IMG/VR virus record: IMGVR_UViG_2841277917_000004 | Coordinates: 13,764 to 77,763 of that record | Length of the DNA: 64,000 bases | Origin: a virus | Taxonomy: Duplodnaviria > Caudoviricetes | Strand: one strand, 5' to 3' | Shown: positions 1 through 59,916 of the stretch, in pieces | How positions within the stretch are numbered: position 1 is the stretch's first letter | How the letters are laid out: each line of letters opens with the position of its first letter | Translations under genes and position numbers: made by a program | The notes under the pieces: model-generated | Told to the model about the DNA's origin: nothing | Seen by the model: the letters and a program-made list of their open reading frames with translations, nothing else | Databases searched by the model: none

Positions 1-102
1 TAGATTGCCAATACTTAAGTTCAATAAGGATTCAGATGGATACACATTTGCAGAGATATAGTACCAATTAAAACAGCGATTTTAAGGGGGTAGAGATTAA
101 TT

Positions 103-621
103 ATGTTAGAATTAGTGTATGTTGAAACTTATTCCAATGATAAAAAGAAAATTCTTGAAAAAGAATCTGTTACTACGCCCGGTTTCAATTGTGTACTTGA
201 TGTAGCTAAATATCTTTATTTAGAACGAGAATTTGATTTAAAACATTGCATAGACGAACATCTGATTTCAGAAGATTGGTTTGAGCATGGAGATAATTTT
301 GCTAATGAAACTGGATACAGATACTCTAAATCCTATTATTTCATTAACAATTTCCAAGAAATAAAGGATATTAGTTTGAAAGCAGCAATGGAAATAGTCG
401 ATGCATTATACTTGATAGAAGAACACACTCACACAATGAGCAAAGAGGTTAATGAATTTGGAAAAAGATTTGCAAATGATGTGTATCTAGATAACATTAA
501 ATGTTCAATGGATATTGTTAGAATTAAAAAGAATGTTCTTTTGCGATATGGCTATTCTCAAGCTCAAATGACAGAAATGATAAGGTGCTTATATCACAAA
601 AATTATCATTTTGCGAGATAA
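103..621 (+). CDS. hypothetical protein
   Basis: 172-aa ORF with RBS; bounded by palindrome copies at 68 and 625. Confidence 0.7.
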   Translation: MLELVYVETYSNDKKKILEKESVTTPGFNCVLDVAKYLYLEREFDLKHCIDEHLISEDWFEHGDNFANETGYRYSKSYYFINNFQEIKDISLKAAMEIVDALYLIEEHTHTMSKEVNEFGKRFANDVYLDNIKCSMDIVRIKKNVLLRYGYSQAQMTEMIRCLYHKNYHFAR

Positions 622-688
622 GTAATGAAATTGGTATTTTATTGAAACGATAATAGGTATTCTAAATTCTAAACAGAGGAGCTAGGAA

Positions 689-1243
689 ATGAATCTTTAT
701 AATGACATGACCGAACAAGAACTGAAACATCTGTTGGATAATAAAATGGGAAAGTTGTTGGGTGAAGGAAATCATGGGAAAGTGTTTGAACTTGGGGACG
801 ATTATGTAATTAAGTATTTTATTGGACGTTCGTATACTGAGGATTATGTGGCGTTAGAAGCTTTACAAGAATCAAAATTCACTCCAAGATTGTATGCGCA
901 TGTTCATGACACATATGTTGTAATGGAGAAAGTAGGAGGTATTACTCTTAGTGACTATTTAACAATAAATAAAACTCTTCCTGATGGCATAGAAACACAA
1001 GTGGAAGAACTAATTAGAGAATATGCAGAACTTGGCTGGCAATTACCTGATTTAAAAGAAAGAGAACATATTCTATGGATTGAAGAAGATCGAGCCATTA
1101 AATACATCGATTTTGGCGTGATGGACAACTTCATTACTGTAAAGGAAAGACATCCAGAGTTTTATAAAAAAACTATCGATAATCAAGTTAAAGATTCAAT
1201 AAGCGTCATTACAAAAGCTAAAGAATTTGGCATATTTGTTTAA
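689..1243 (+). CDS. small protein-kinase-like (Ser/Thr, RIO/Bud32-like fold) protein
   Basis: LGEGNHGKVF Gly loop, VIK lysine, VMEKV hinge, PDLK catalytic loop, IDFG. Confidence 0.8.
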   Translation: MNLYNDMTEQELKHLLDNKMGKLLGEGNHGKVFELGDDYVIKYFIGRSYTEDYVALEALQESKFTPRLYAHVHDTYVVMEKVGGITLSDYLTINKTLPDGIETQVEELIREYAELGWQLPDLKEREHILWIEEDRAIKYIDFGVMDNFITVKERHPEFYKKTIDNQVKDSISVITKAKEFGIFV

Positions 1244-1372
1244 TGTATTCTAGTGAGAAATTATGAAATGGGGATTTTAAGAGGAGAAAACACCGGAGGA
1301 AGATCGCAGCGTTTCCACTGAATATAATAAAAATATAACGAGATTTAATAGCAAGCAAATCTCATAAGATAA

Positions 1373-1969
1373 ATGATTAAGGGTGGTACGATGAAACAAT
1401 TAACTGATTGGGCAATACTTACACTTTATTTTGTATTTGTTTGGTTGGCTTTATTAATTACTTTGAATATTAGTAGATTTTCAATTGATAGTTTTGAAAC
1501 AATCTTTACAATAGTCTTTAGCATTGGAGTATCTGTGTTATGTTTTTTTCTGGTATTTAATGTAACTATACTATTTATTAGTAAAAGAAAATGGAAAATG
1601 CCTGATAAGAACAGTTTTTATAATCCACTTTCCAAGAACGTAGAATTACATTTAGGTAGTTCAGGAAATATTCGATCTGCTTTATTAGTAATTAATAGAG
1701 CAAGAGAACTTAAAATGAATGTATATTTTGTTACTGATCATATTGACAGTGAGTCATTAATAAAAATTGCAAATAAGTATGGTTTTAAAATTGAAATTAG
1801 AAAGGCAACATTTATTCAAAAATTAATGTTTATACCGAAAGCTAAAATTTACAAAGTGCTTAAAAGAGCAAAATCTAGAAATTATGAATGTATTGAATGT
1901 AAAATTTTAATTAGAGAAGATAAGATACTTAAAGAAGAAAATTTTAAAGGTGTAATTAGAAATTTTTAA
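1373..1969 (+). CDS. membrane protein (2 N-terminal TM helices), hypothetical
   Basis: Two hydrophobic stretches followed by a basic soluble domain. Confidence 0.65.
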   Translation: MIKGGTMKQLTDWAILTLYFVFVWLALLITLNISRFSIDSFETIFTIVFSIGVSVLCFFLVFNVTILFISKRKWKMPDKNSFYNPLSKNVELHLGSSGNIRSALLVINRARELKMNVYFVTDHIDSESLIKIANKYGFKIEIRKATFIQKLMFIPKAKIYKVLKRAKSRNYECIECKILIREDKILKEENFKGVIRNF

Positions 1970-1993
1970 GGAGATGAATTTCAGATAGGAACA

Positions 1994-2407
1994 TTGGAAA
2001 AAGCGATTGTTATAGCTATTAAAGCACATGCTGGTCAAGTAGATAAAGGTGGTAATCCGTACATACTGCATCCGTTAAAAGTGATGCTGAAAATGAGTAC
2101 TGAAGAAGAAATGATCGTTGCTGTGCTGCATGATGTTATCGAGGATACAAAAGTTAATGCACATGATCTGATACGAGCTGGCTTTACAGAGAGTGTTATT
2201 GATGCTGTAATTGCTTTGACAAGGCAAGACGGAGAAACATATGTGGACTTTATTAAGCGTGCAAAATGTAACCCGATTGCAAGGAAAGTAAAAATGGAGG
2301 ATATAGAAGATAACTGCGATTTGACACGTATATCCAATCCAACTGACCAAGACTACAGTAGAATTAAGCGGTATAAGAAAGCGATTCAGGAATTGATGTC
2401 TTCATGA
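1994..2407 (+). CDS. stand-alone HD-domain protein (RelA/SpoT hydrolase/MESH1-like)
   Basis: AHAGQ-x5-PYILHP, AVLHDVIED, VKMEDIEDN motifs. Confidence 0.85.
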   Translation: MEKAIVIAIKAHAGQVDKGGNPYILHPLKVMLKMSTEEEMIVAVLHDVIEDTKVNAHDLIRAGFTESVIDAVIALTRQDGETYVDFIKRAKCNPIARKVKMEDIEDNCDLTRISNPTDQDYSRIKRYKKAIQELMSS

Positions 2408-2473
2408 ACATTAATATTCAATTTTTGATAAACTGGAGTTTAAATAAAAAACGTTACCAATAGGGGAAATAAA

Positions 2474-2713
2474 ATGAAGGTTCCGAAATACATAAGAGAA
2501 GCTGTTATCAAGAATGCTAAAGCAAACGCAGTAGCTATGGAAACCGATAGGATTATACGTGATTGGTTAGGAAAGAAAAAAATCTATAATAATTCTGTTA
2601 TCGATATGTATATAGATAGTTGTGATATGGGGAATGATCCTGATGGATTTATAAAATTCTTAGAAGGTGATTCATATAGAAAAGAAAATGATAGCTGGTA
2701 TTGTGAGGATTAA
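2474..2713 (+). CDS. hypothetical protein
   Basis: 79-aa ORF with RBS. Confidence 0.6.
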   Translation: MKVPKYIREAVIKNAKANAVAMETDRIIRDWLGKKKIYNNSVIDMYIDSCDMGNDPDGFIKFLEGDSYRKENDSWYCED

Positions 2714-2791
2714 GATTAAATAGGATAAAATACTGTTTTTATTGCCTTGCGCTCTCATTTTACTTATAATCATTTGCGGGGTGGTTATAAG

Positions 2792-3394
2792 ATGGCATTA
2801 ATAGTTAAAATTTCCATTAAAGATGATAAGGGGAAAGAAACTGAACTAGAGTTACAAGAAACTGATAGCCTTTCAAAATTAGTGATCGTGCAAAATGTGT
2901 TTAATTTATTTGGTATTGATAAAGATATTTTGAAAACAGTAAAAGAGTTTGAAAAGATAGGTAAGGCTTACAGCCATTTCTTTGCCAATATGAAGCAAGA
3001 AGAAGAGCAAACAGAAGAGAAACAAATTAATAGCGAAGAAATTCGAGGGCAAATGATTAAAGGGCTTCAAGATAATAATGAATCTCCAGTAATTCAAGAA
3101 GATCAAGATAATCAAACGAATACTGTTCCTGATAATGTTGTTCAGGTTTCAGACTATCTAACAACAGGAATTAAAGAAGATTCCAGCGGGACAAAACGCT
3201 ACAAATTAAGATATGAATGTCCTATATGTATGAATAAGGGCGTTCATTATGTTTATAAAAATTCGTCCGAAACGTGGTGCCATGCTTGTGGAGTAAACAT
3301 GCAAATAAAAGCAGCTCACAAAGAAGGATTTCCTAATAGAGATTCATTCGGAAATTTTTATCGAGCAGGGGATTATTACGACTACTCTAGCTAA
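2792..3394 (+). CDS. hypothetical protein with C-terminal CxxC...CxxC zinc ribbon
   Basis: YECPIC...TWCHACG; ATG at 2792 after a GGGGTGG RBS-like site; hairpin at 3378-3406. Confidence 0.7.
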   Translation: MALIVKISIKDDKGKETELELQETDSLSKLVIVQNVFNLFGIDKDILKTVKEFEKIGKAYSHFFANMKQEEEQTEEKQINSEEIRGQMIKGLQDNNESPVIQEDQDNQTNTVPDNVVQVSDYLTTGIKEDSSGTKRYKLRYECPICMNKGVHYVYKNSSETWCHACGVNMQIKAAHKEGFPNRDSFGNFYRAGDYYDYSS

Positions 3395-3538
3395 AAGGGT
3401 AGTCGTTTGCTTAGTAATGATTGCTCTATTTGGATATATGAGAAAGAAATCACAATATATTAAATAAAATATTGTATATTAAGATTCCTTATGTTATAAT
3501 GAAAGTGTTAGGGATTAACTGGTTGTGGAGGTAATTTT

Positions 3539-4883
3539 ATGATTTATTCAGATTATCAAGAATTGCAAGTACGTCTAAGAAATGAGATTAATATTAAAAG
3601 AAAATCTCAAGGCTTAAAATTAAACAAATTAGCTGAGCTGTTAGGGATAGATAATGTAACTAATCTTACAAGGACTCTAAGACCTAGCGATTCAATTGAT
3701 AGGAAATTCAATGTAGAAATGATTGATTCCATCACATCTATCCTATGTCTCCCAGAAGGCTATTTTTATCCTTTATCCTTTATTTTTGGGTGAGTTAAGA
3801 AGGAAAACAAAGAAAAATGAAAGTGGTACTTTTATAGAGGGAAAAACAAAAGATTTTATTAAAAGATGCTTAGACTTGTCACTGTACGATATTGTATCGG
3901 GATTGATTGAAGAAGTTATCAATGAAAAAAATACAAAAGTTATCTTTGATTTAGCGGAAGAAATATTTTCTCATGCAGAAGAAAAGTACCCTTATGATCC
4001 AAGCACTGTAAACTACAAACAACCAGAATATACTCATGCACTGTATTTATATCAACTCATTGCAGAAAAAGAAAAAAGCTTCTCTCCACAGTTGGCAGTT
4101 TGCTACCTTAGAATTTTTTACTTGCTCAGATTCGATCCCCAACAAGTACATGAGCGATTTATCTTAATGAAAAATTTTATAAGATTTATGCCAGAGGACG
4201 AGCAATTAGTCGCTTATGAACGGGTTTGTGCTTACTACAAGATGTATTTTAAATGGGACAAGTTATATGAAGCAGCAGTTACTTTAGAAGAATTAGCAAA
4301 AGAGAAGAATGAGGATAAATTTGGTTTTGCATTAGTCTCAAAAGGATTTGCTCTTAATGGACTTCATAAGTATAACGAGGCTCTAAAAGTTATTAATGAA
4401 TATAAAAATATTAATGGGTTTGGAGAGCAAGCTATAATTAATCAATTAATTACACAGATACATCTTGGTGACATGACCAAAGCTGATGAGCTAATTGAAA
4501 TTGCATTGAGAACTCCTTCGCCCACTAAAGAATCTACACTTGCTATAGTTCTTGAAAAATATTCGGAAACAGGTCAAATAGATTCTGCACTAAAGTTAAT
4601 GGAAAAGTGCAATCAACATTTAAATTTGGATAAGAATGACAAAACTCATCTTGCCTTTAAAATTATGAAGTTTAAAAGAGCGGAAGGGTTAATACATATA
4701 CAAAATCAAGCGTTCGAAAAAGGAATAGGTAGATTATTAGAATCAGCAGGAATTGCAATTCATCTCAATTTAACTCTTGAGTTTGGCGAGTTAGTCGCTT
4801 TATTAAGTAAGAATATTGAAAACGCAAATGATAATCAAAAAGAGTTTTTATATAAGTTATATAAAAACAATGAAAGGAGGTGA
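3539..4883 (+). pseudogene. aimR: AimR-like arbitrium receptor (HTH + TPR, RRNPP family), frameshifted
   Basis: HTH ORF 3539-3793 (LPEGYFYP) and TPR-like ORF to 4883 are joined by removing one TATCCTT copy at 3767-3780, giving 445 aa; followed by a signal-peptide gene. Confidence 0.85.
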
Positions 4884-4889
4884 TCATAA

Positions 4890-5009
4890 ATGAAAAAACT
4901 ATTACTTTCAATGCTTGCAGTATTGTGCCTTGTTTCGGTAGCAACAGCAGTAAGCGCAGATGCAGGTGAGCGACCAGTGGCATTAATGGACGCAGGAGAA
5001 CGACCATAG
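4890..5009 (+). CDS. aimP: AimP-like arbitrium pro-peptide, 39 aa: MKKLLLSMLAVLCLVSVATAVSADAGERPVALMDAGERP
   Basis: Translated by hand (below the ORF-track cutoff); strong AAAGGAGGTGA RBS; Sec signal peptide; directly after the aimR-like gene; terminator follows. Confidence 0.88.
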   Translation: MKKLLLSMLAVLCLVSVATAVSADAGERPVALMDAGERP

Positions 5010-5026
5010 AAGTACATAACTACCTT

Positions 5027-5685: not shown

Positions 5686-5773
5686 GTTGTCATTACACTA
5701 TGTTAAATTGTATAATGAATATACAATAGACTATAATTAAATTTATATATCTTTTTTGGAAGAAGGTGATCAA

Positions 5774-7144
5774 ATGCAAATTGGCGTAACCAGAGATATG
5801 GTGGAAGAAGTATTGCACAAAGCCATAGCAGAGATCAAAAATAGTAAGAAAACAGTTCACTTATTTAAAAAGAAATTATCGACTCATGGAGTAGGATTGG
5901 CTGACACTCAGCGTATAATAAATGGGAAAACCCCTTTGGATCAAGTAGAGAATAGCGTTTTATGTTTATTTCTTATTTACATAAGAGAATTCATTAGTGA
6001 TGATAGTGATTTAAAAGCAAAATTAAAAGTACAAAATTATTATACTCAGAATGAGATCAATGAAGTAAAATTAATAGAGTATGCTCCTGAAAGGGTAAAA
6101 AACGAAAGTTTATTACCGTATACTTTCACAGAGGCAATACAGTCTGATTTGGATGATTATGATACCCTTATTACTGAAAGACAAATCTTAGAATTAATTG
6201 ATGGTAACATCATACAGTATAATTTCGAAACTCAACGAGAGGCGAAAATAATCAAATCAAGCAATTCACCAACAGGGATTATAAAAGTACCAAAGATAAA
6301 CGAAGAAGCACTGAAAGACATTACAAAATTGATTTTAGCAGGGAAATTAGTTAGAACAACCATTATATTAAATGCAAGATTAAACTCATCTGATTCTGGA
6401 CAAGAGATTCTTTTTGATAGAAAGGGTAGGACTTTAACTGTAACTGAGGGAACTAAGCTAGATTGTATAGATGGATTTCATAGGATAATGGCTGTAGTAA
6501 ATGCTCTTAAAATAAATCCTGATGTCAAGATGACATTTGGTTTAAGAGTAGTTAATTATAGTGAAAAAAAGGCTCAAATTTTATTCTCTCAAATAAATAC
6601 TTTTACCAGCCAAAGTGCTTCAAGATTAGCAGAAATGCGTCAAAGTTTTTCTTCTTATGTCGTTAAGCAACTTAGAGAGGAAAGTGTGATAGGAGATAAA
6701 ATATCTTCAAGTGACTCGCTTTTTTCTGATCAATTGGTAACTTTTAATGTTTTAGATTCAATAATAGATGAAACTTTTCATCCAACAAATATTATAGAGG
6801 CTAAAAATGTCGTAAATATATTAAAAGAGACTTTTGACTCTATTGCTATGAAATACCCTAATGAATTTATAACAGAAGTAGACAAATCAAAAAAAGAAAC
6901 TGTTGTAAATCAAAACCATATGTTTAACGCCTATGTAGTACTAGCTAAAAAAATAAATGACTTAGGTCTGCCTATAAGTGATATAACAAAAATTTTGAGT
7001 AAATTTGATTTCTCACGTAGCAATCCACTATGGCAAGAGGTGGGCATTCTAGACCAAAATAAGAACATGGTTTCGAAACCTAAGAAAAAAATACTTAACT
7101 TGTTTAAAAAAATTAACGCTAAAGAGGAGATATTAGATGTCTAA
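5774..7144 (+). CDS. DndB-like DGQHR/ParB-domain protein (SPbeta YopQ/SroE-like)
   Basis: IDGFHR motif; syntenic directly upstream of the YopR-like gene. Confidence 0.8.
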   Translation: MQIGVTRDMVEEVLHKAIAEIKNSKKTVHLFKKKLSTHGVGLADTQRIINGKTPLDQVENSVLCLFLIYIREFISDDSDLKAKLKVQNYYTQNEINEVKLIEYAPERVKNESLLPYTFTEAIQSDLDDYDTLITERQILELIDGNIIQYNFETQREAKIIKSSNSPTGIIKVPKINEEALKDITKLILAGKLVRTTIILNARLNSSDSGQEILFDRKGRTLTVTEGTKLDCIDGFHRIMAVVNALKINPDVKMTFGLRVVNYSEKKAQILFSQINTFTSQSASRLAEMRQSFSSYVVKQLREESVIGDKISSSDSLFSDQLVTFNVLDSIIDETFHPTNIIEAKNVVNILKETFDSIAMKYPNEFITEVDKSKKETVVNQNHMFNAYVVLAKKINDLGLPISDITKILSKFDFSRSNPLWQEVGILDQNKNMVSKPKKKILNLFKKINAKEEILDV

Positions 7145-8147
7145 TCTAAGGTATAAAGATGGTTTTTACAACGAAAACTATAAAAAAGCTTTTTTAGATC
7201 AGTATAGTAGCAGTATAAAAACGTATGAGGTATACGCTAGGATTTTTAAAGCAAGTAAAGATATTGAAGAAGAAAAGGAAAAAGAATTAGGAAATTTTAA
7301 TGCAGGAGATTTAGATGATTTGTTTACTCATCTAAATCCTCGTAGTGCATGGGTTAGTGCAACCAATATAAGTGTTGTTAAAAACTATATTCATTGGTTT
7401 ATAGAGAATGGGTATAGAGAAAATAATATTAATCCAATAGTTATGTTAAAACATGTGGAAGGATATGCAAGACAGTTTGTAGATGAAAGCGTGCAACAAT
7501 ATTATTCGAAGAAAACGATTGAAGAAATTGTTGATTATGCAGTTAATAAGCAGGATGCAGTTATTCCATTAGCCCTGTTCGAAGGTATAGCAGGAAAAGA
7601 AAGTTGCGAGATCAGAAACTTAAAATACTATGAAATAGATTTTGAACGAAACATCGTCTTGCTGACTGATTTAGATGGCACTAAAAGAGAGCTTACTATT
7701 TCTGATAAATTAATCGAACTTTTAAAAGCTGCTTATTTTGAATCAGAATATATTAAGAAAAACGGAAATGAATTTTCAGAAACAACTAGAAATAAAAAAG
7801 AAGGTATTGAGCTGCTAGAGACAGGTTATATATTAAAGCCAGCCAAAACTAGAGTTGTCCATGAAGATGCAGTAAAAAAACATGTTGTATCCAGACGTTT
7901 GACATCACTTGGAGAGTTTTTTGGTATTCAGAATATAACTGCTTTAAAAGTAATAAGATCTGGCATGATTTATATGGGGCATAAACTCTATAAAAGAGAT
8001 GGTGTGTTAGGAAAAGAACAGATAGCTGAGATTTGTCAGCAATTCAATATACCAAAAGTACATTCTGCTGGTGTATATGATTACAACTACACTCGGATTG
8101 GCGAGTATGTAAACTTAGATATAATAAAAGAATTATATGGAGAATAA
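7137..8147 (+). CDS. mrpR: tyrosine-recombinase-fold master repressor (MrpR/YopR/SroF-like)
   Basis: LALFEGIAGKESCEIRNLK and IRSGMIY motifs, catalytic R/H set degenerate; SPbeta synteny. Confidence 0.75.
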   Translation: MSNLRYKDGFYNENYKKAFLDQYSSSIKTYEVYARIFKASKDIEEEKEKELGNFNAGDLDDLFTHLNPRSAWVSATNISVVKNYIHWFIENGYRENNINPIVMLKHVEGYARQFVDESVQQYYSKKTIEEIVDYAVNKQDAVIPLALFEGIAGKESCEIRNLKYYEIDFERNIVLLTDLDGTKRELTISDKLIELLKAAYFESEYIKKNGNEFSETTRNKKEGIELLETGYILKPAKTRVVHEDAVKKHVVSRRLTSLGEFFGIQNITALKVIRSGMIYMGHKLYKRDGVLGKEQIAEICQQFNIPKVHSAGVYDYNYTRIGEYVNLDIIKELYGE

Positions 8148-8153
8148 AAATGG

Positions 8154-8304: not shown

Positions 8305-9619
8305 GTGAGTGAGGTTTGGGACTGCACAGATTTAATTTCTACTAAAGATTTAATTTCATTATATGAGAGAGAAATTGAAAGAAAGGAATCTAAACTAAAT
8401 GAAACTAAAGAGTCTCAGATTGAATACAACATATTAACTAGAGAAATTTATGAATTAAAAAATAAACTATATAAAATAAAAAATAAATGTTGAATCATGA
8501 ATAGCGGGCAAAGAATAAAATCTGGCTTTCATTAGATAGGAGGGAGCGATGGTGAAATATGTAGCACATTTAAAGCAAATCGGAAAGATGCTAGATGATC
8601 CAAGTTGCAATGAAAAGCTCAACAACACATTGGGCAATGTATTTTTACAACTTGAGGAAAACTACAAAATTGCTGATCGAATTGAACTTTACTATTTAGG
8701 AACAAATGTAAGGGTGAGGATAGGTGACAGAGTAATTTCAAATGATGAAGAAGAGTACTGGGGGGAGCAAGTGACCCGAATAAATGAAGATGGAACAATT
8801 AACGTAACCTCACCACTAGATACCTTTAAAGGAGTCTCGTATAAGAATTATAGATTACATACAAAACAAAATGTCTTTTTTGAGGAGTGTGAAAATGCTA
8901 TCCGAAAATGTAAGAAAAGAACTTGAAAGTGCTTTTGATCATATAGAAGCTGCATATGATTTGTTGCATGGACAAGATGATTATTACGATCCGAAGCAAA
9001 CAATTTTTGATTTCATATATGAATTTAATGAAAGCAAAGACACTGTTAGAGCTAAGGTTAATGTTCTTTATCGAGCTTTGTTGGCATTAAGCACAGAATA
9101 CAAACCTGATCCTGCCGATGACAAGAAGTGGAGGGAATATTATGACTGATACTGAAAAGCAACGTGCAATTGCTTTAGGTGAGCAATTTGGATTAGAAGT
9201 TACATTCGACAACAAAGAACCAGGTGCTTTTATTGGGGATAAAAAATTGAGTTTTGGGGAATTGTTTAAGGATTGGCTTGATGATGTAAATGAGGAGGGA
9301 TGAACATGAACTATTATCAGGCAATTGAATTAATGAAAAATAAGAAGTAGTAGAAAGTCTAGAATAGGAAGTTGGCAGAGCAGATTGTTGCGAGTATAGC
9401 CATGCATAGGGAGTTGAGAAAGTGGACAATTTTCAATTTAAACTCAATAAAGAAGAGGACAAAACAGCAGATGACACTATTTTTTCTGTTAAACCAAATG
9501 GGGAAAAATATAAGATTTCTTGGGAGTGTGAAGGTGCTAAGTATAGCATATTTTATCCTGTATTAGTGGTAGAGGCGTTATTAGAAGATGGAGCATGGAT
9601 TATTGTTGATAACAAATAA
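8305..9619 (+). other. cluster of small hypothetical phage genes (8305-8493, 8549-8926, about 8895-9149, about 9142-9303, 9422-9619)
   Basis: Co-oriented short ORFs with RBSs; no recognisable motifs. Confidence 0.6.
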
Positions 9620-12704: not shown

Positions 12705-12754
12705 TAGGATAAAATAGTGATTTTAACTGATAGATATAAAATAAAAAATTAAAA

Positions 12755-13864: not shown

Positions 13865-16181
13865 TTGTCTTTATTCTGGCGTAAGAATCGTATTAGAGAG
13901 TTAGAAAATGAGAATGAGAAATTGAGAAAGAGAAATGAAGAATTAGACGATAAGCTTCGAGAAGTAACTAAATGGAGAGAAAGACCTAATTGGAGATGGA
14001 AGAGCATCACGGTATCACCCTATATTTTTGAGAAATACATATATGGCTGGCAGAAAACTTTTGGGGGTTATCTTTGGAAGGGATACCGTGTAGAAGTAGA
14101 TGAAGCAATGCCAGATGGATATGTAAGATATGAAGAGGCGATAGAAGAACCACATAAGAATTGTAAGAATTGTGATATTAACTTTAAGCTTGTATTGGGA
14201 TTCCCAAGTGAAACCAGAGATTTTTGTTCAAATGAATGTTACGTAGAAAAGATGATGAAATGAATATTTTATGAGATGAGGCTAAAACATGGCAGAACCT
14301 GCTATAGAGATTGAATTGAAATTTGAGGACGGGAGTAGTTTTGAGTATCGAGCAAATGCAATACCAAGAGTGGGTGAGAATATAGATATTTATGTAGATG
14401 ATATGATAGGTAATTTTGAAGTTTTGAAGGTCAAACATCGTGTATCTAAAACTAAAAGATCATATGGCATGCCATCACAGATTTTTTCATATGTAACAGT
14501 TTATATAAAGTAAAAATAAATAATAGTGGAGATATAGCGAATGATTAAAATAAAGAAAACTAATATTTATGAAGTGGCTGCCATAGCTAAGAAATCTTGG
14601 CTGATAGAAAGACCTAATGAAGTGGAGTATAAAAAGGTTAAAGAAGCCCAAGAAAATATTGAGGGACATGTTAATGAAATTAGAGAAATTTATATACAAA
14701 AAATGTTTTTACAAACTTAGCTTAAAGGACAAGCAAATAAAAAATATTTAGGAAAAATGGAGAGGTTAGTATGAAATTAATAAAGGAAAAGTTAATAGAT
14801 GTGTTACCAGCATTCGGTTTCGTTCAATGTAACGATGGAACTGATTACTACAGTGGAACTCCGCAATGGTTCGTAGCTCTTGTTCGCTATTATGATCAAA
14901 AAGAGGAGTTAATTAAGTTCTTTAATGAAGTAGGGATTGAATACCCTACATGGATTAATGAAATTAAAATGCCATATGAATATGGTGAAGAAGAGTTAGA
15001 ATTAATATTTAAAAATTTAAATCGAATGTACGTTTGCAATGGTGAAATTTATAGTAATAATCTGCAATATTGGTATGAATATTGGCACTATAGAAATTTT
15101 AATGTTCAAGATGCTTTTTCTAAATTGAGTTATTTGGAAATACCGTGGCAGCTTTTTCTCAAGAATTCATTGCTGCTAGATAAAAAATGGTTCGAGAAGA
15201 TTGTGGATTCCTTAGCTCAAGGAAAAGCTCACTCAGATTATTTTCTACGAATTTATCAGTATCAGACACTTACAAAGGAACAAATTGAAGAACTCATTAA
15301 GGCAGTAAAATTTGATTCAAGAAATAGTGATCATAGAGTAATAATGAAGCACGCATTAAAAACATATTCATCATACATGGCTGCAAAAAAGACCCAAAAT
15401 CTATTGTCTGAGTATGAATTCGATTATAAATGGTATCCGGAAGAATATCAGGTTCTATACATAATGCAGAAAGAAGAAATCGAAACTAAAATCAAACTAA
15501 TTAAAAATAGCACTCTTAGTGAAGAGAAGAAAAAAGAACTATTGAGAAAGATTTTGTTATAAAAATAAGCTTCAAATAAAAATATGAATAAATGATTGAA
15601 GGCAGGTGCGATTTATAGATACTTCACCATATTACAAATTAATATGTCAGAGAGCTAAAGAATTGCAAGAAGTTTGGAAGCCAAAAGTTGGAGATTTTAT
15701 TTCAACAACCTCATGTTATTGCAGTAATCCAAAAAACTGTAGTGATGATCAAATGTGCTTAGACTGCACGAAAAGGTCAAATACATACGTTATTTCAGGT
15801 CAGTACGATTATGCGGAGTCAATAGGAGGAACTCACTGGTTTTATGGTGGTCACGCTTGTGTTCGTGGTGATGGAAATAGACTGAACAGTACGGGTTGCT
15901 ACGTAATGACGGAAAGTGGGGTTTCAGGAATTTATACAAGTAAATATGAGTGTGGTTCGAAGAAATGTAAAATTTGGTTGCCTCGACAAGAGCAGTTTCA
16001 AAATATGCTTTGGGAGGGACTATCTAATACAAGTAAAGTTAGAAAGTTTATAGATTATATTGGGAATAAAGCATACACCGACTCAATTGAATCATTATGG
16101 TTGCATCTATATATGAAAGAACGATATGGAAAGAGATGGAATTTATTGTCAGATGTGATGCAGTGGGAACACATCGAATAA
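13865..16181 (+). other. hypothetical phage genes (13865-14263, 14289-14513, 14771-15562, 15606-16181)
   Basis: ORFs with RBSs. Confidence 0.6.
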
Positions 16182-16208
16182 AAGAAGGAATTCATTAGGA
16201 GGAAGTTA

Positions 16209-16625: not shown

Positions 16626-16627
16626 AG

Positions 16628-20100: not shown

Positions 20101-21160
20101 TTTAAAAGCGGTACGTCAATTAGTTAATGAATTACAAATCAAAGATTCTAGTAAAAAGATCATTAAGTCAGCTATTAATGACGCATTTAAAACTGTGAAT
20201 AAGAAATTGTACATTATCGAAAGTAGAGAAAAAACAAAACTTGAAACTAAAATGATTGATAATCATAAAGTTACAATTCCTAAAGGGCTATACAGTAATA
20301 AAAATGCTGTTTATTACTATGGAAATGGCGTCATTTATCAAATCAGCAAACCAAGATTTGACCAAGATAAAAGCTTTCACATGATAAATTGCGTTTGGAT
20401 TGATGAAGTGAATAGGCAAACAAAACTAATAGTTCGTACTCTAGGTGGAGATAACTACGGAGATAGATATTTTTTGGAAGCAGGTTACTTTAAGGATATA
20501 AGGGATGAATATCCGTATTTGACTAAGGCGATTAGACGTAGCAATTATAAATATAAAGAATATGTAGAAAAGGTTTTGGCATACATAAGAGAGTTTAATG
20601 GATTTGAGAATTTCCATGTAAAAGGGAAAACAAGATAAAATGGAAAGAGAAAGACACATGGACTCTACATACAGTCTTAGCGAGGCTACACACTGGAAAG
20701 CTACTTTTGCTAATTGGGAATGCAAAGAAACGTTATCTGGCGTGACATTAGGAAAGGTATATGAATTAAAAAGAGGACAAAAAGAAGAGTTGTATGTTAT
20801 TGATGATAAAGGTGATTTGAGTACAATATTTCTATGTCACAATGGAGAATTAGTTAAGATAAAAAATTTATATGGAAGTGAGTTAGGTGCATGACTGATT
20901 ATTATGTCAAAAAGTATCCAGAATTGAAAGAGGTGGTTGATAAACACAATCTTAAGTTTGACTTGGACTGTTGGGGTATGGGAGTAATAGTTTTTTATGA
21001 GGGGGAAGAAATCGGATATTGGTTTCAGAGTTTAAATGGGATAAGTATGCAGTACACAATAGGACTTGGACTTCATAATGATTTTCATGAAAATTATACA
21101 CTATTGAGTGAAGGCATTGATTACAGAATTAATACGTCATTTAACCAAATGAAAAGTTGA
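17106..21160 (+). other. array of small hypothetical phage genes (including Ead/Ea22-like 17408-17746, 18437-18952, 18987-19271, 19268-19666, 20069-20638, 20640-20894, 20891-21160)
   Basis: Co-oriented, often overlapping ORFs; EDAEFIAHAREDI motif in the 17384 ORF. Confidence 0.6.
19783..20049 (+). CDS. conserved small phage protein (KYRKKPVVIEA...TLEG...GDWII...YPCKPDIF family)
   Basis: Widely conserved phage motif; ATG after an AAAGGAGGA RBS. Confidence 0.75.
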   Translation: MAKYRKKPVVIEAEQLTVEMCQKNAGFANPFKVGHKILYIYYYTDYAVIGTLEGEMKAEIGDWIITGIKGEKYPCKPDIFEATYETVE

Positions 21161-21185
21161 TTTTATCGTTAACTTATAAAAAACA

Positions 21186-38398: not shown

Positions 38399-38622
38399 AA
38401 GGTTTAGTGTAATGAAACTCAAATTTCAATAGGTGGGGAACAGGTTGAATGGAGTAGAAATTTTTCTGGCTGTAACAATCGGTATAATACTTTTATTAAA
38501 AGGGGTTAAGTTAGCTCAAAATATATTAAATATGGATGAAATAGACGGGTTCATCAGTATAATTTCTTTCGTTTCGTTACTGATTTGGTTAGCAATTAGA
38601 TTTAAATAATAGGAGGAAATGT

Positions 38623-40089: not shown

Positions 40090-41775
40090 ATGAAGATTTA
40101 TCTTGTTTATAGTATTGAATCTTTTGATGGCTATACACAATTGATTAGTGCTCATAAAAATGAACAAAATGCCAAGAAACAAGTTGAATCCTTAACAAGT
40201 GCCGAATTAGAAAGAGTAGAAAATTATAACTCTTGGGTTGATATGGAGGATGGATCAATACCTGACCTTCCCCATGATTGTATTTATACATATGTAGCTC
40301 TAGACCTTGTAGATTAAAAAAAATAAATGTGCTGAGGTGTTTAATTGCAGAATTATGACCCAATCTATCCACAGAAGAGTTTCGTTTGTGGAAGTAAATT
40401 GATTTTCAATAAGAGGAGTGAGAAAGGAATATCGCTGATAACTGGTACGGTGCTTAGTAATAGCAAATGGACGCAAGATGGCAAACCATATATTGAAGTA
40501 GGATTTAACCAAAAGATTTGTAAATACATTACAAATTGGGATAGATGAAAGATTGATTTTATCACATACAAAATAAATATTTGAAAAGTCGAACATTCCA
40601 AAGTAACAGTGCTATACTTAAGTTACGTTATAATACAGGAATGGGCTGATTAGTTGTTTAGAATTGTAAATGCTTTTGCTTATGATAAGAACGGTGATCC
40701 GATTGACAATATCAAACGTGTTATTGTTAAACCAAACAACAATGATTCAGGAGCTAAAGTAAAAGTAGTTATTAAAGCCAACTCTGAAATTCGAAATATT
40801 ATTAATAATAGTTTAAGTGAAAACAAAACACCTATTTTAAACCGGATTATCGGCAATTTAGAAGGATTAAATAAAAGAGTTGAGTTAAGAAATGTGCATC
40901 TTATAATCGACCGTCAACTTCCCTCTGAGTCAGGCTTGTCTGATGAATTAATGATGCTTAGGGGTGTGGTAGATAAACATTCATTCGTAGATTAATCTAT
41001 GAATGAATAATAAAGTAAAAATATAAAATAAAAAAATCGCAACGAAAGGAGAAAAAATGAATTCAATTGTAAGTATCGAAGAAGCCATAGAACTTTTAAA
41101 TACACTAGAAGTAATGTACTCAGAGAATGGAGAAAGACCAGATGTTTTGATTAAAGATGATGAACAATTTCGAGAGGTTTGTAATGCATTAAGCATATCA
41201 GAAACAGTTATAAATAGATTTATGACAAAAAACAACATGATAGAGATATTGGCTCTTGCAGCAAATACTTATGGGCTTGGATATTACGATTTTGAAAAGG
41301 GCTTTTTGATTGATAAAAGCTGTACAGAATGAAATTGTAGTTTTAATAGAAGAGGAGGCAAATATATGAAGATCATAACCAGTAAAAACACTCGCTTTAT
41401 AGTTGGGATGACGGGTAAAGCTAAAGAGATTAATGAATACATTAAACTAATTAAAAATAAAAAAGGGGAATTAAATTATAGATGATGATTGTTAGACCAT
41501 ATGTGCTTACATGGGAAAATATTAAGGAAGAGAGTTTAGAAGCAGTCATTACAATTCCAAGGTACTCTCAAATTTTATCGTTTGAAACAAGCGAACAAGA
41601 GTTAATTGTAAATGTGCTTATTGAAAGTGATCAAACGGAATTGCACACAGTTCCTATAAAGTTAGTTCAGAATGGAATAGATGTGAGTGATTTATACGAT
41701 TCAAAACTTATATTTAATCAGACAGTTCGATTTAACAATAAGTCATACCATATTTTTTGCAACGAATATATCTAA
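40090..41775 (+). other. hypothetical genes (40090-40317, 40345-40548, 40654-40995, 41057-41332, 41482-41775)
   Basis: ORFs with RBS-like sites; palindrome copies at 40545 and 41329. Confidence 0.55.
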
Positions 41776-44263: not shown

Positions 44264-45300
44264 TTGTTTCTACTAATAGGGAGCTATCTAATTACTGTGC
44301 TCTTAGCATATTACTCTATAAGATATCTTCGAATACATAAATTTATTTTCGAATCAAAAATTGAAAACCTTGCCGATCTGATAATGTACCTTATTTTTAT
44401 ATTTTGTCCGTTTGTAAATCTATATACAATAGCAGATGCATTATTTACGTTAATTTACAACCTACTTTCAAATATTAAACCAAATAAAAAATAACTTTCA
44501 TTGGAGATGAGATTAACTTTGATAATCTTTGCTGTACTGTTAAAACTATACTTGACATCTTTATACCAGATGAAGTTATGCAATTAGAGTATTTGAAGTA
44601 ATTAACTGATAAGGAGGAGCAAAGAATGAAAAAAGGTTGGGAATTGATTAATGAATTATTTGGTGAAGATTTTGATTTCATGGGTGAAATTATAGATATG
44701 GATGGAGTAGTAGAGATTTCTGATGTTATATCATATAACGATGATTGGTGGAATTATCATTTAGTAACTATCGAATATGAAGGAAAATATTATACATATG
44801 AATATCGTAAACATGTCGCACCCATTTGTGGAGATATTGAATATTATGGCGAGACTTTTCAAGAAGTAGAAAATAAAGAAGACATTGAGGAGAAGTGGAG
44901 AATTCTAAGAAATAATATAATTAGTGAACTAGAAGGGTTAAGGACTGCTGGGCTTTATGGTGACTCTTATGAAGCTGAAAAGGCGTTTGTGTGGGTTTTG
45001 AGCAAAATGGATGAATTGCATAAAGTCAATGATAGTGACAATATCTTATCGTGAGAGGAGTAGAGAAAATCTATGCTGAGCTTAGAAGATTTAATTGAGC
45101 TAGAGAAAATAGTTGAAGACAGAATTAAGATATGCAGAGAGACGAATGAAAGATTTAATAGTTCCATAGTGGGTAAACAGCTAGAGGAGAGCAGAAAAAA
45201 GGAAATATTAAAATATGAAAGATTAAAAGTGAAAATCCATGATCTAATGAGTGATTCTAATGAGGGGAAAAGGTTTGATGGATACGAGACTTGCAGATGA
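44264..45300 (+). other. hypothetical genes (44264-44494 membrane, 44626-45054, 45073-45300)
   Basis: ORFs with RBSs. Confidence 0.55.
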
Positions 45301-46808: not shown

Positions 46809-46982
46809 AAAAACCCTCTCCTTTATTAATGGTATTTTATGGATCAATTAAATTATACTTCCATTTTATGAGTTTTGTAGTTATCAGATGTGTGTATTTT
46901 GTGATAAATCAGTAATTTTAAAATTTGTATAATAAAATCAAGAATTTATTATGTATCAATTAGAAAGTGGGAGAGTGAATAT

Positions 46983-52605: not shown

Positions 52606-52618
52606 AGGAGCTATGTAT

Positions 52619-55679: not shown

Positions 55680-56405
55680 TCAAATCACTCCTTTATTAAT
55701 TTAGAAAATTATACCATATTTAGTTTGTTATGTAAAAAGATAGATTTATCGATTAATAAAACAATGATTTCATTATATTGGAGGTTGCAAATATGAATGA
55801 ACAAGTAGATAAAATAAAGGAGCTAATCAAGGGGCGGTATAATCCAAGGTATTGCGGTTATACGGAGATGAGGTCAGAGGGCAACTACACTGATGTATTC
55901 CAAGACGGATGTGAATATGGTGAGTCTCAAGTTCTCTATGAAATTGGTTGTTTACTGGAGATGGACTTGGAAGAGCCTGAAGAACAAAGCTTCGATTACT
56001 GGTGAAAGGATAATGAGACTTACTAATGAGATAAAGCGGAATTGAATCAATGCTAAATCTATAATGTAAAATAAATAATTAAACGGGAGGTTAAAAAGTG
56101 AGAATAAAAATTGGATTAAAAGATGGAACTGCAATTTATACCGAGACTCTTAAAGAAGGGATGGCTTTTCTTAAGCCAATGGATGAAAAAGATTGGCTTG
56201 TAAAAAAAGCCCTAGTTCCATATAGAAATATTGAATATATAAAACTTATTGCAGATAAAAACGAAGTAACCATCCACAAAAATGGAGATGTAACACTTAA
56301 AGGCGATAATATCAAATTTGATAAAGAGATTTCTGCAAGCAACTTGACAGAGAGCATAGAGAAATAACAATTAAATTTAAATCATACATAGGAGGATAAT
56401 TTTTA

Positions 56406-56948: not shown

Positions 56949-56970
56949 ATCAAAACTGGAGGATAAATGA

Positions 56971-57423
56971 TTGGTTTTTCTAGTACTTTTATTTTTTACA
57001 CTCAATCTAATTTCATTATTTAAAGGCAGCTTATTTTACAAATCAAATTATAAGGCTTATGAATTTACTGTTAGACAGTATGAGGGTAGCTTAACAGAAG
57101 AAGAAACTAAGGATTATGGAATCAGAATTTTTATCAGTTTTATACTATCAATTGCATGGGTTACTACACAAATTATATTTTACTTAAATGCCCTATTTAT
57201 CGACCAGCTTAAGTTTTATACAACTATCATGATAGCAGTTATGATTACAAATATTTTAGTCAATGTAATTAAAAATAAAAAATCTAAAGTGGAAAATGAT
57301 CAAGACTTAGAGGAACTAAAAAAACAAATGTATTCATTAAAGAAACATACTTTTAAGCAGAAATTTCATGCTCTTCTCTGCATCTGTTATTTTGCATGCG
57401 CTTTTTATGTACTGGTACTCTAA
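56971..57423 (+). CDS. integral membrane protein
   Basis: Four hydrophobic segments. Confidence 0.65.
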   Translation: MVFLVLLFFTLNLISLFKGSLFYKSNYKAYEFTVRQYEGSLTEEETKDYGIRIFISFILSIAWVTTQIIFYLNALFIDQLKFYTTIMIAVMITNILVNVIKNKKSKVENDQDLEELKKQMYSLKKHTFKQKFHALLCICYFACAFYVLVL

Positions 57424-57465
57424 TAAAAACAGACTTTCATCATGTTAGTTAGCAAGGGGGATTAT

Positions 57466-58251
57466 ATGATTGCAAGGAACGACCAAGGACAACTAGTTTA
57501 TAACGGTGATACATTTAAAATTGTATTGCAACGATATTCAGATCCTGAAAGACTAAACTCAGCAAGAAATGCAGCTATATATTTAGGAAAATCTGACCGA
57601 GACAACACTAGAAGACCACTCAGTATAATCAAACAAGGTCATGTAATTGAAATTTTTAGAGGTGAGTATGCTGAATTCGAATTTATCGATGTAGATAAAA
57701 CAACATATGATCATATCATTACATACACGACTCGAAATATGCGTGTAGCTGGTGGCAATCGAGCATTGACTTCTGATTCCTACACAATTCCAAGCGATAA
57801 AATTAAAAATTCAGAAGCTGTATCCCAAGCAATTGATAACTCAATGTGGAACTATAAACAATTAATTGAGCTTGGGGAGACAAAACAAGTAGCTAGATCA
57901 GCAATGCCAACATCAGCAAAAATGAATCCTTTCGTTTATCAATTCAACTTTGTCACTCTAATGCAAGCAGTTTTCCCTCAACGAATTTGGGAGAAGGGAG
58001 CACAAAGTAATACTTCAAAAGTTATCAAAGGAATGTGGGAACTGGTTCACTCTATTGACTCCGAGCTGTGGGATATTGCTTATGATACCTTTGGAGTGCC
58101 AGCAGTAGAATGGAAAACTGTTAGAAGTAAATTAAATAAAAATAAAATAACTACAAATCAATTAATTGATAAACTTAAAGAGAATCAATTAGATATGCCT
58201 CTTGAAAGTGTATTACGTTCGATGTTTGGGGCGCAAAAGAGCATGTGGTAA
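57466..58251 (+). CDS. thyX: divergent FAD-dependent thymidylate synthase (ThyX-like)
   Basis: IKQGH..IF...AEFEF, QVARSAMP, R....AQ pattern; nucleotide-metabolism context; RHR motif not canonical. Confidence 0.6.
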   Translation: MIARNDQGQLVYNGDTFKIVLQRYSDPERLNSARNAAIYLGKSDRDNTRRPLSIIKQGHVIEIFRGEYAEFEFIDVDKTTYDHIITYTTRNMRVAGGNRALTSDSYTIPSDKIKNSEAVSQAIDNSMWNYKQLIELGETKQVARSAMPTSAKMNPFVYQFNFVTLMQAVFPQRIWEKGAQSNTSKVIKGMWELVHSIDSELWDIAYDTFGVPAVEWKTVRSKLNKNKITTNQLIDKLKENQLDMPLESVLRSMFGAQKSMW

Positions 58252-58455
58252 TAAAGAATACATAGCAAATTTCAATGTGTGTACGGTGGATATAAGATTA
58301 GTTTTCCGTATCCATCGTTACACATAGAGGTGTAATATGAGCGACTATTGTACAGTCATTAATCAATTTAAAGAGCTACCTGATAGCCCAATAATTGGTG
58401 ATACTTATTTTGTCTGTGAAGCAGCATCTTTTTTCAAATCGACAGTTTTCTTTAT

Positions 58456-59916
58456 TTGGAGCGGAGATGGATGGGAGATATTAAACTATGGAGGAGTTTA
58501 GATATGTGCAGAACAGTTGAACTTGCAAATGTATTAGTTGACACTCTAAATGAACTAGTCAGCATTGAAGAAGTTTCTAGTCAGCAGTTGAGTATCCTAG
58601 ATAAACAACTATCAGAAGCATACCACGACCTTGAAACACTGACATTTAACGCTTCCCAAGGATACAAGATAGCGAAGCATATACAAGAAATACTTCATGA
58701 AAGACGAAAAGTAAAAAATGAATTTAGTTGCATTCAAAGTTTATCTCAATCTATGGATATAGAGAAATATAGAAGAAACATACTCAATGTGAAGCAAAAA
58801 GTAGACAAGGTATTTGAGAAGAGTAAGGATTTAATAGAGAACCGTGGTTCATACGATTACATATTCAATACATAGAAAACTCTTTACTAAGCAATTAATG
58901 AAATGTCCATTTTATCAAACATAGAAGGAGTGAAATTGTTTGCTTAAACAGATATTTGGATTTGACCAAGATACATTAAAGAAAGGGCAGGCTGTAAAGA
59001 TAGGGGATAAAAAAAGAGTTTACCCAAGTAGAAAATATCGTGATCCTAATGAAACTGAATATGAAAATGAAAATTTAGCTGGCAATTACTTAGTTTATGA
59101 TGTAGAAGTGCTTCTTTTAAAATTAACCACCAGTGAAGGTGGGAGAATAAATGTTCCAATTAATCATTTTACAGGTGAGAATCCACGGATGACTATTAGA
59201 ATACTGGAGTAAAGATTATGAATAAAAATTGGAATGAACTATCAGTAGAAGAAAAAAAGTGGCTGTTTGAATGGAATAAAAGAAATGTCAGAAAGGAGGG
59301 AATTAAAAACTGGATGTTATCTATGTAATACATAAAGATGGTAAGCGTTGGGAGAATGATGGTCGAAAAATTGCGTATCTAAAAAAGAGTGCTGCTAAAG
59401 GTGTTATTACAAACGAATGCAATAAGTACGCTTCTGATAGGGTTTGGAATAGGGAAGATTATTTTAGTGAAGCATATCAAATTGCTAAAGATATAGCTTT
59501 TGATGAAGAGTTTGAACGATTTAAGATTGTTGAATATGTTCCAAGAGGGGAGCAAATATGAATACTAAATGTGAAGATGACTAACTAATAAAACGAATTT
59601 TAATCAGACACCAATGGGAGATGAATGCATGAAATCAGTTCCTGACGATTCACCTAAAAGAAATGTATATTATTGCGAATATAAAGGAAAAAACAACTCG
59701 TTTCACTCGATTGTAACTGATGATTATGAATATGCTCTATCGATCGATTCAAAACCGCAATTGGCAACATTACAGCAACTTAAAGTTTATGCGAATGTGG
59801 GAGAAGTATTTTATGGTTTATTGAATACATATGATGGAACTGTTGAATGGAAAGAGTATACATATACTGATAAATTCGGTGAAGAAGAAACATTTGAAGA
59901 TTACATTCTAATTTAA
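58456..59916 (+). other. hypothetical genes (about 58504-58875 coiled-coil, 58940-59212, 59614-59916)
   Basis: ORFs with RBSs. Confidence 0.55.

Follow-up and report, generated by a model that had tools for sequence, protein, structure and literature searches.

Tens of dispersed repressor sites per genome are familiar from several phages, including the stoperators of L5, the conserved inverted repeats of phiC31, and the C1 operators of P1, and we know of no link between the L5 or phiC31 sites and mosaic boundaries. Core sites of the Xer/dif type have an 11-6-11 architecture, and SPbeta, a long-studied model phage, is known for its arbitrium signalling, its MrpR/SroF repressor and its YonO polymerase. 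In the literature searched, which was available in part, SPBRE is the only repeated element described in SPbeta. According to the accessible sections of one report, it is the operator of the master repressor MrpR (YopR, SroF), which has the fold of tyrosine recombinases but no longer functions as one, and the ten MrpR peaks obtained by chromatin affinity purification sequencing (ChAP-seq) are all at SPBRE promoters (PMC10516654). A second account, in the sections at hand, has SroF binding a 24-bp box as a monomer, with different boxes in SPbeta and phi3T (bioRxiv 10.1101/2025.11.27.690993). In T4-type phages, the accessible text of Arbiol et al. (2010; PMC2839356) describes the PeSL as a mobile regulatory cassette. 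Here we describe a palindrome, ATRAAA-N6-TTTYAT, that recurs in a 64,000-nt stretch of viral DNA (Duplodnaviria; Caudoviricetes), hereafter the window, comprising bases 13764-77763 of the 77,763-bp IMG/VR provirus record IMGVR_UViG_2841277917_000004, which is estimated to be 64% complete. An earlier annotation made from the letters of the window (the original prediction) had proposed that these palindromes delimit single-gene cassettes shuffled by a phage tyrosine recombinase or, alternatively, that they are operators of a dimeric regulator.

The palindrome resembles the PeSL, as far as the latter is covered in the text available, in being a short conserved motif between non-essential genes of variable regions, at which insertions, deletions and replacements end. 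The PeSL, however, combines a sigma-70 promoter with a terminator hairpin, and its recombination relies on homology along a longer repeat, whereas the palindrome has neither a promoter nor a stable hairpin and is conserved over 11 bp on each side of a variable centre; furthermore, mini-circles are known for the PeSL, whereas the present evidence comes from contigs only. SPBRE, too, recurs between genes in this phage family and is bound by a protein of tyrosine-recombinase fold, but it is asymmetric, lies at promoters and differs between SPbeta and phi3T, whereas the palindrome is symmetric and conserved across genera. In the available part of the MrpR report, the palindrome is not among the 10 ChAP-seq peaks (PMC10516654). 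Multi-site operators such as those of L5, phiC31 and P1 are similar to the palindrome in occurring in tens of copies in short intergenic spaces genome-wide, although the L5 sites are asymmetric and oriented while the palindrome is symmetric. As would befit a multi-site operator of a dimeric regulator, we find the palindrome to be symmetric, present in many copies in non-coding DNA, and specific to one lineage of elements, with a regulator that is putative. Our tentative reading is that it may be a conserved protein-recognition site at which exchanges of modules also preferentially cross over, much as at the PeSLs of T4.

Occurrence of the palindrome in the window

All 12 exact copies of the 18-mer that the original prediction had listed are present at its coordinates and with its cores, and all 12 cores are different (Table 1). 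The original prediction had estimated less than one chance match; 100 dinucleotide shuffles gave a mean of 0.33 matches and a maximum of 2, and the arm-product expectation is 0.56. When the spacing of the same arms was varied from 0 to 30 bp, 12 matches were found at spacing 6 and 0-3 at each other spacing. Matches with one mismatch are weakly enriched (15 at spacing 6 vs. 4-16 at spacings 2-11), and those with two mismatches show no excess (73 at spacing 6 vs. 63-97 at others). Of the nine near copies proposed, six belong to the class with one mismatch (1263, 12709, 16178, 38412, 41329, and 46932) and three to that with two (68, 46904, and 55732). With 19 occurrences in the window and 23 in the complete 77.7-kb record, vs. 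0-5 matches at other spacings, the 16-mer TRAAA-N6-TTTYA is a better definition of the site than the 18-mer with mismatches, and recovers the near copies at 68, 1263, 12709, 38412, and 41329.

Gene calls were heuristic and were made for this analysis. By these calls, 12 of 12 exact copies are at junctions of open reading frames (ORFs), and the seven stop codons said to lie in an arm or core are indeed there, as ORF ends. The 16-mers at 7181 and 21374 are located within genes, where they probably arose by chance. The description of the replication core and nrdIEF as devoid of sites was also correct, with no 16-mer between 21374 and 33714 or between 44485 and 55757. Finally, the shuffle and host-genome controls that the original prediction had called for showed the motif to be enriched in the phage and not in excess in the host genome.

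Distribution among SPbeta-like phages

In SPbeta, the 18-mer was found 14 times and the 16-mer 36 times, with an excess only at spacing 6. At this spacing the 16-mer is found 34 times in phi3T, 40 times in Goe13, 38 times in BUCT082, 39 times in Mammaliicoccus phage phi6255, and 20 times in Staphylococcus SPbeta-like; at other spacings, these five phages, SPbeta and the record each have 0-13 matches. The strict 18-mer is present 26 times in phi127 vs. 1 match to the reversed control, and 18 times in phi36 vs. 0. In Geobacillus virus E3, 42 of the 97 matches at spacings 3-9 have N6, as do 36 of the first 50 matches listed for Psychrobacillus phage Perkons (both hand counts). By comparison, no excess was seen in the host control, an AT-rich 4.7-Mb Bacillus genome (35 matches vs. 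26 to the reversed pattern), nor at N6 in phage K (5/46) or SPO1 (1/18), again by hand count, and in Twort and A511 matches were about as frequent as reversed controls. Several of the counts in this survey were made by hand from long listings. The palindrome is a hallmark of the SPbeta-like phage lineage in several host genera, and is not an effect of host or AT content. Two of the SPbeta sites are labelled in its GenBank record, as stem-loops only, and a literature search whose scope lacked the 1999 SPbeta genome paper and supplements found no published description of the palindrome.

In distant relatives the replication module is flanked by the palindrome. One copy lies downstream of the polymerase gene in the window (33713), in SPbeta (111028) and in the prophage locus L017 (13946), and a copy is found upstream of the module in SPbeta (99497), L017 (2914) and a second locus, L014 (2939). 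These positions suggest that a site next to the replication module has been conserved across ~60% protein identity. In addition, a site with the identical centre TTCAGA is present in Staphylococcus SPbeta-like (113653), phi6255 (119135), phi127 (120642) and phi36 (126161), which makes some of the sites orthologous between phages of different host genera. The phage SPbeta-like 2 has the same ten sites as Staphylococcus SPbeta-like.

Breakpoints between related phages

SPbeta, phi3T, Goe13 and BUCT082 were compared by BLASTN, and the ends of BLAST blocks were taken as breakpoints. Within this genus, 32 of 177 block ends were within 30 bp of a site, vs. 2.9 at random positions, and the per-junction odds ratios for a breakpoint in site-bearing vs. 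other junctions were 5.7, 8.0, 3.9, and 2.9 with each genome as reference. In the early accessory regions of SPbeta, a breakpoint was found in 18/24 junctions with a site vs. 26/78 without, and the Mantel-Haenszel odds ratio for the accessory regions, stratified by gap length, was 4.8. Inside site-bearing junctions, 15 of 35 breakpoints were on the palindrome ±3 bp (5.3 expected), and their offsets cluster at its two outer edges and rarely at its centre. Base-level alignments gave the same picture, with homology beginning at the left edge or stopping at the right edge, centre included. For example, a block containing yoqD is 99.9% identical between SPbeta and Goe13 and has a palindrome at each end, and phi3T lacks yoqH-yoqI by a gap lying exactly between two palindromes; of the first, phi3T retains the left flank and arm, and of the second, the core.

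An independent lineage, the Mammaliicoccus phages, was analysed by comparing phi6255 to phi127 and phi36. Here, 14 of 116 breakpoints were within 15 bp of a site vs. 1.6 expected, with a Mantel-Haenszel odds ratio of 4.4. For the lineage of the window itself, contigs of four public runs (X2, X5, X6, and X10) from three studies were aligned to window positions 1-20000, and the counts given for it are those among the alignment rows listed. Homology ended at 79, 632, 641, 1266 (two runs), 2725 (two runs), 8531-8546 (three runs), 9613, 9630, 12734, and 16203 (three runs), all at or beside palindromes. Of 52 internal breakpoints, 11 were within 15 bp of a site (1.25 expected, p = 4e-8); when only junction positions were considered, the count was 11/29 vs. 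3.2 expected, and 8 of 9 site-bearing junctions had a breakpoint as compared to 14 of 33 others. In run X2, 642-1265 had been swapped for 2021 other letters and 8545-9612 for 2871, with the bordering palindromes kept. The expectation that breakpoints between related phages coincide with the motif was therefore borne out in three lineages, the window's included; the narrower expectation that they fall in the N6 core held as to the palindrome, but the breakpoints are concentrated at its outer edges and are rarely in the centre.

Variable-centre palindromes are typical targets of dimeric nucleases, and local breaks would yield a clustering of breakpoints, so that the palindrome might be the target of a nuclease or nickase (a ParB/DndB-like or HNH enzyme) whose breaks stimulate recombination. 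The location of breakpoints at outer edges rather than at the centre argues against this possibility, which we consider, together with that of a signal for RNA processing or translation (see below), to be quite improbable.

Another explanation is that the palindrome is a pure regulatory operator or roadblock, without any role in recombination. In that case the site-bearing junctions would be mere borders of independently selected units, and the palindrome edges the only crossover places that leave both modules intact. In keeping with this, the upstream stop codon usually lies within the site or directly next to it, and the following start codon is 14-33 bp away, so that neutral space is scarce; tens of dispersed sites are common among phage repressors; and one site abuts a -10-like box. 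The SPbeta family also has a second repressor, SroE, whose mode of action and targets are given as not established in the accessible part of the account (bioRxiv 10.1101/2025.11.27.690993). However, site-less junctions of equal length class break less, as seen in the Mantel-Haenszel odds ratios of 4.4-4.8 in two lineages, homology ends 0-3 bp from either outer edge at many independent junctions, and the site travels with the upstream gene in some cases and with the downstream gene in others. The length-matched comparison of junctions argues for some causal role of the site, and we regard an operator devoid of any part in exchange as unlikely. An operator of a dimeric regulator, the alternative raised in the original prediction, is nevertheless in our view the likelier primary function.

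Proposed cassettes and simple insertions

The integron-like proposal is that the palindromes are 11-6-11 core sites of a phage tyrosine recombinase (YopP/Xer-like) and mediate the excision, capture and swapping of genes. Total length (~28 bp), arm length and the 6-bp centre are indeed as in Xer/dif-type sites, all three lineages have breakpoints at the edges of palindromes, stretches with a site on either side have been replaced, and both the yoqD block shared with Goe13 and the missing yoqH-yoqI of phi3T lie between palindromes. As with the attC site of integrons, the palindrome lies at the 3' end of an ORF, often with the stop codon inside, and has a variable centre and single-gene units. 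It is, however, 18-28 bp long with perfect arms, whereas attC sites are 57-141 bp long and imperfect, and its arms have another sequence than those of Xer/dif sites, from which it also differs in its tens of copies, in a recombinase that is only putative, and in its unlike centres, all 12 being different in the window. Unlike centres block most tyrosine recombinases.

The distribution of sites also departs from that of an integron, in which every cassette ends in attC. The palindrome is carried by about a fifth of junctions (9/42 in window positions 1-20000 and 31/188 in SPbeta), and most junctions with a breakpoint are without a site (47/69 in SPbeta, 48/66 in phi6255, and 14/22 in the window). 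Among four Spbetavirus genomes, simple insertions were represented by 30 ordered-pair rows, corresponding to fewer distinct events; in 11 of these, one end was within 3 bp of a site, and in none (0/30) were strict sites present at both ends. Inserted genes were often directly beside one palindrome. Some simple indels were independent of the site, involving introns, an HNH gene and, in one event, a repeated ribosome-binding site (RBS). The proposal that sites delimit shuffled cassettes is thus supported as regards the wholesale replacement of segments between two palindromes, seen in X2, but not as regards simple insertions. A dedicated site-specific recombination system is, in our view, doubtful.

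Two further comparisons were made. Staphylococcus phage PhiSepi-HH3 is 99.9% identical to Staphylococcus SPbeta-like and gives no mosaic information. In the laboratory-evolved phi3Ts-SPbeta hybrids Hyb1-3, one parental switch could be resolved (in Hyb1), within a 19.8-kb block common to both parents, and other stretches match neither parent at ≥99.8%.

Anatomy and position of the site

In symmetrised profiles the conserved region exceeded the 18-mer and reached ±14 bp around the centre, giving an extended consensus of approximately TYTRRA-TAAAA-N6-TTTTA-TYYARA, i.e., a 28-bp palindrome of 11-6-11 layout with a variable 6-bp centre. In the Bacillus phages, gene junctions account for 15-19% of the genome but hold 83-92% of sites; this share of sites is lower in phi6255 (29/39) and Staphylococcus SPbeta-like (11/20). 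At co-directional junctions of the record, SPbeta and phi6255, the median distance from stop codon to site is 0-18 bp with a mode of -3, where the stop codon TAA or TGA forms the first three bases of the 16-mer, and the median distance from the end of the site to the next start codon is 25-32 bp. The palindrome occupies the spacer from the stop codon to the next RBS. In the Staphylococcus phage, the nine co-directional sites lie further out, at 98 and 122 bp from stop and start, respectively.

In the record, 11 of the 14 exact 18-mers (12 of which are in the window) pair one ATGAAA with one ATAAAA arm, in either orientation on a single transcribed strand. ATAAAA is present on both sides almost throughout in SPbeta and the Staphylococcus and Mammaliicoccus phages, and Perkons also has many TGAAA arms. 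The excess of mixed arms in the record is weak (one-sided binomial ~0.03) and may reflect either an asymmetric site or descent from one ancestral copy.

A fixed place upstream of the RBS would suit a role in RNA processing or translation, the second part of the improbable explanation mentioned above. However, the hairpins are weak (mean minimum free energy -2.3 kcal/mol, z -0.95), and the five ATAAAA...TTTCAT sites, which would have an A-C mismatch as RNA, all fail to fold when read from the transcribed strand. None of the sites is overlapped by an Rfam family. An RNA hairpin was rejected as the main function. The symmetric flanks, the two orientations on one strand and the weak hairpins together point to recognition of the palindrome as double-stranded DNA by a symmetric protein.

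No -35 or -10 sequence occurs at a fixed offset from the site, except for a trivial match of the arm itself. Several other candidates were also discarded. The palindrome is not the SPBRE/MrpR operator, as the box shared by SPbeta promoters is a different and asymmetric sequence, which we read from the promoters of yorE, aimR, yopM, yopV, yorZ, yorM, and yosX as approximately ACAAATACAAAWAATATGTATAT (11 sites in SPbeta). A palindrome is present within 300 bp of 6 of these 11 SPBREs, but clustering was not significant against a junction-restricted null (p = 0.23). A role as YonO promoter was rejected because, in the accessible text of the pertinent report, YonO transcribes late genes from a single start upstream of yonK (PMC5467207). 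A repeated 11-mer, ATATGTATTTC, was considered as a repressor box of this phage and dismissed, its copies lying within coding sequence and having no common flanks.

Sigma-A-like promoters with extended -10 boxes are found at 3470-3510 and 46920-46950 of the window. The first, TGTTATAAT, is upstream of the ORF starting at 3539, and the second, TGTATAAT, is in the divergent junction 46848-46983, where a one-mismatch palindrome starts right after the -10 box.

Candidate proteins

The original prediction had named two possible recombinases, the YopR-fold protein and a YopP/YomM-type enzyme outside the window. The former belongs to the Pfam MrpR families and is therefore most likely a repressor and not a recombinase; its SPbeta counterpart is, in the accessible parts of both accounts, a repressor that binds another motif (PMC10516654; bioRxiv 10.1101/2025.11.27.690993). 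In SPbeta, the YopR-like protein is not the partner of the palindrome.

As for a YopP-type enzyme, no PF00589 match was found in the 77.7-kb record, itself 64% complete, whereas an integron has an IntI/attI platform. The ORF at the YopP position (3723-4883) has no Pfam or PHROG match and no similarity to SPbeta YopP, and that upstream of the YopQ-like gene (5264-5659) shows no integrase signal and no family match; the motif and the breakpoints are nevertheless present in this lineage. Since the record is incomplete, the gene may lie elsewhere in the phage. At 3765, where ORFs 3539-3793 and 3723-4883 overlap, all four runs lack 7 letters relative to the window; a gene consisting of a single ORF in relatives may here be frameshifted in the record, or may exist as a real variant. 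YopP-like genes above the PF00589 cut-off, with the R...H...K/R...H...Y pattern kept, are present in four complete relatives (SPbeta, phi3T, Staphylococcus SPbeta-like, and phi6255), and an integrase gene is annotated at the yopP place in E3 and Perkons. A trio of integrase-like YopP, DndB-like YopQ, and YopR-like repressor is encoded by SPbeta, phi3T, E3, Perkons, and the phages of Staphylococcus and Mammaliicoccus. According to PMC8612738, YopP has no established function. Because YopP-like genes adjoin yopQ-yopR in these relatives, the recombinase idea is weakened for the window but may still hold for the family. A gene-shuffling system in SPbeta-like phages of at least five Bacillota host genera, with YopP or YopQ recombining the 28-bp site, seems to us an unlikely proposition. 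If true, single accessory genes would be cut out, captured and exchanged between co-resident phages, and a genetically tractable model phage would possess its own equivalent of the integron.

As a guess, YopQ/SroE is the most economical candidate for a protein that binds the palindrome. The YopQ-like protein of the window is 32% identical to SPbeta YopQ, its clusters in a protein atlas carry the name DGQHR, and it has no sequence match to solved structures at E ≤ 1. Its homologues occur in the Staphylococcus and Mammaliicoccus phages. YopQ-like and YopR-like genes are found together in the record, SPbeta, Staphylococcus SPbeta-like, phi6255, E3, and Perkons, and YopQ-like matches also in phi3T, Goe13, BUCT082, phi127, and phi36, i.e., in every phage checked, all of which bear the motif.

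Interpretation

We tentatively favour a protein-recognition site that also serves as a preferred place of crossover. The 28-bp palindrome would be read by a conserved, symmetric (dimeric) phage DNA-binding protein, a candidate being the ParB/DndB-like second repressor YopQ/SroE, and the binding site would be placed in the short spacer from the stop codon to the next RBS. The palindrome would then be the sole sequence common to otherwise unrelated neighbouring modules and therefore a preferred crossover when related phages exchange accessory genes, acting like the PeSL motifs of T4-type phages or lambdoid boundary sequences. The exchange itself could be caused by short homology via a Sak4-like annealing system, by a dedicated enzyme, or by breaks at the site.

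Several points weigh against this interpretation. Binding of the site by a protein is predicted from its sequence, and exchange driven by homology would have very little to act on in arms of only 6-11 bp. In a compact genome, selection to keep modules whole (stop codon, palindrome, and RBS) could place viable breakpoints at the edges without the site being causal, so that it would mark module borders; the within-junction null is uniform and ignores this constraint, and gene calls are heuristic. The p-values of the four SPbeta-genus reference analyses are not independent because the genomes share events, and the breakpoints of the window lineage come from the rows listed, a further 143 pieces and 27 joints lying outside these. 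The candidacy of YopQ is a guess because its co-occurrence with the motif is no better than that of other lineage-wide proteins; YorF-L, Nrd, and late proteins not visible in the record fit equally well. The crossovers of the hybrids lie in long homologous blocks and not at palindromes, a result that is uninformative rather than contrary.

Other features of the window

ORFs of the window match the SPbeta replication module YorF-YorL, with a polymerase 60% identical to that of SPbeta, and there are further matches to NrdI/E/F, a ligase-like protein, YopQ, YopR, and a large serine recombinase. Since most remaining ORFs have no SPbeta counterpart, the window represents a distant SPbeta-like phage. 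A megablast search of the phage collection with window positions 22000-34000 found no close relative. The IMG/VR relatives identified by polymerase (L005-L008) cover short parts of the replication module and carry few palindromes, and the alignment of prophage loci L014 and L017 with the window is confined to the replication genes (63-70%), too diverged for mapping breakpoints. The nrdF gene is in two parts within 52553-54623, one from 52553 and the other at 54186-54623; these are separated by an HNH ORF (53337-54068) with similarity to YosQ of SPbeta and by a group I intron (53985-54199; Rfam RF00028, 51.8 bits). This split arrangement is also present in SPbeta.

Table 1. Palindromes and selected genes of the window (X2, X5, X6, and X10 are the public runs aligned to positions 1-20000).
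Feature	Position	Strand	Remarks
Palindrome, 16-mer core exact, outer bases differ	68..85		X2 homology begins inside, at 79
Palindrome, exact 18-mer ATGAAA-TTGGTA-TTTTAT	625..642		Homology ends at 641 (X2) and 632 (X10)
Palindrome, 1 mismatch, 16-mer core exact	1263..1280		X2 and X6 homology begins at 1266
Palindrome, exact 18-mer, core TACTGT	2725..2742		X2 and X5 homology begins exactly at 2725
YopQ/SroE-like DGQHR/DndB (ParB-like) protein, candidate palindrome binder	5756..7144	+	Pfam DndB 1.2e-11
YopR/MrpR/SroF-like repressor, tyrosine-recombinase fold	7137..8147	+	Pfam MrpR_N_CB 3.8e-19, MrpR_C_cat 2.5e-16
Palindrome, exact 18-mer, core TCTGGC	8515..8532		3' of YopR-like gene; breaks at 8544 (X2), 8546 (X6), 8531-8544 (X5)
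Palindrome, exact 18-mer, core CATGAA	9616..9633		Stop codon 9617-9619 in left arm; X2 homology begins at 9613, X5 diverges at 9630
Palindrome, 1 mismatch, 16-mer core exact	12709..12726		Breaks at 12734 (X6) and 12748 (X5)
RNA ligase family protein	12755-13678		Pfam 2.5e-25
Palindrome, exact 18-mer, core TGAATA	14255..14272		Stop codon 14261-14263 in core; no breakpoint seen in the four runs among the rows listed
Probable palindrome, 1 mismatch in right arm	16178..16195		Stop codon 16179-16181 in arm; X2 and X6 pieces end at 16203, X10 joint also there
Palindrome, exact 18-mer, core AGTTGA	21149..21166		Convergent junction
Palindrome, exact 18-mer, core TACATA, both arms ATGAAA	33713..33730		~230 bp downstream of YorL-like DNA polymerase gene
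Palindrome, 1 mismatch, 16-mer core exact	38412..38429		
Palindrome, exact 18-mer, core GATTGA	40545..40562		Stop codon in arm
Palindrome, 1 mismatch, 16-mer core exact	41329..41346		Stop codon in arm
Palindrome, exact 18-mer, core AATAAC	44484..44501		Stop codon 44492-44494 in core
Possible palindrome, 1 mismatch	46932..46949		Abuts TGTATAAT -10-like box, divergent junction; alone, indistinguishable from chance
Palindrome, exact 18-mer, core CAATGA	55756..55773		Divergent junction, RBS 4 nt downstream
Palindrome, exact 18-mer, core ACAGAC	57423..57440		Right after stop codon
ThyX-like protein	57442-58251		3.6e-08
Palindrome, exact 18-mer, core TGTCCA	58898..58915		Exact match
Large serine recombinase	62390-64000		Runs past window end; 25% identical to SPbeta SprA

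Significance

Next to SPBRE, the palindrome is a second SPbeta motif, one that is far more widely conserved and that marks the places where accessory genes are exchanged. It provides a concrete sequence to be tested as the target of the orphan proteins SroE/YopQ and YopP, a simple diagnostic of the SPbeta-like lineage in metagenomes, and a handle on the trade in cargo genes among large temperate phages of Bacillus and staphylococci. If the palindrome were an active recombination site, the origin of phage mosaicism at gene boundaries would become directly testable in B. subtilis.

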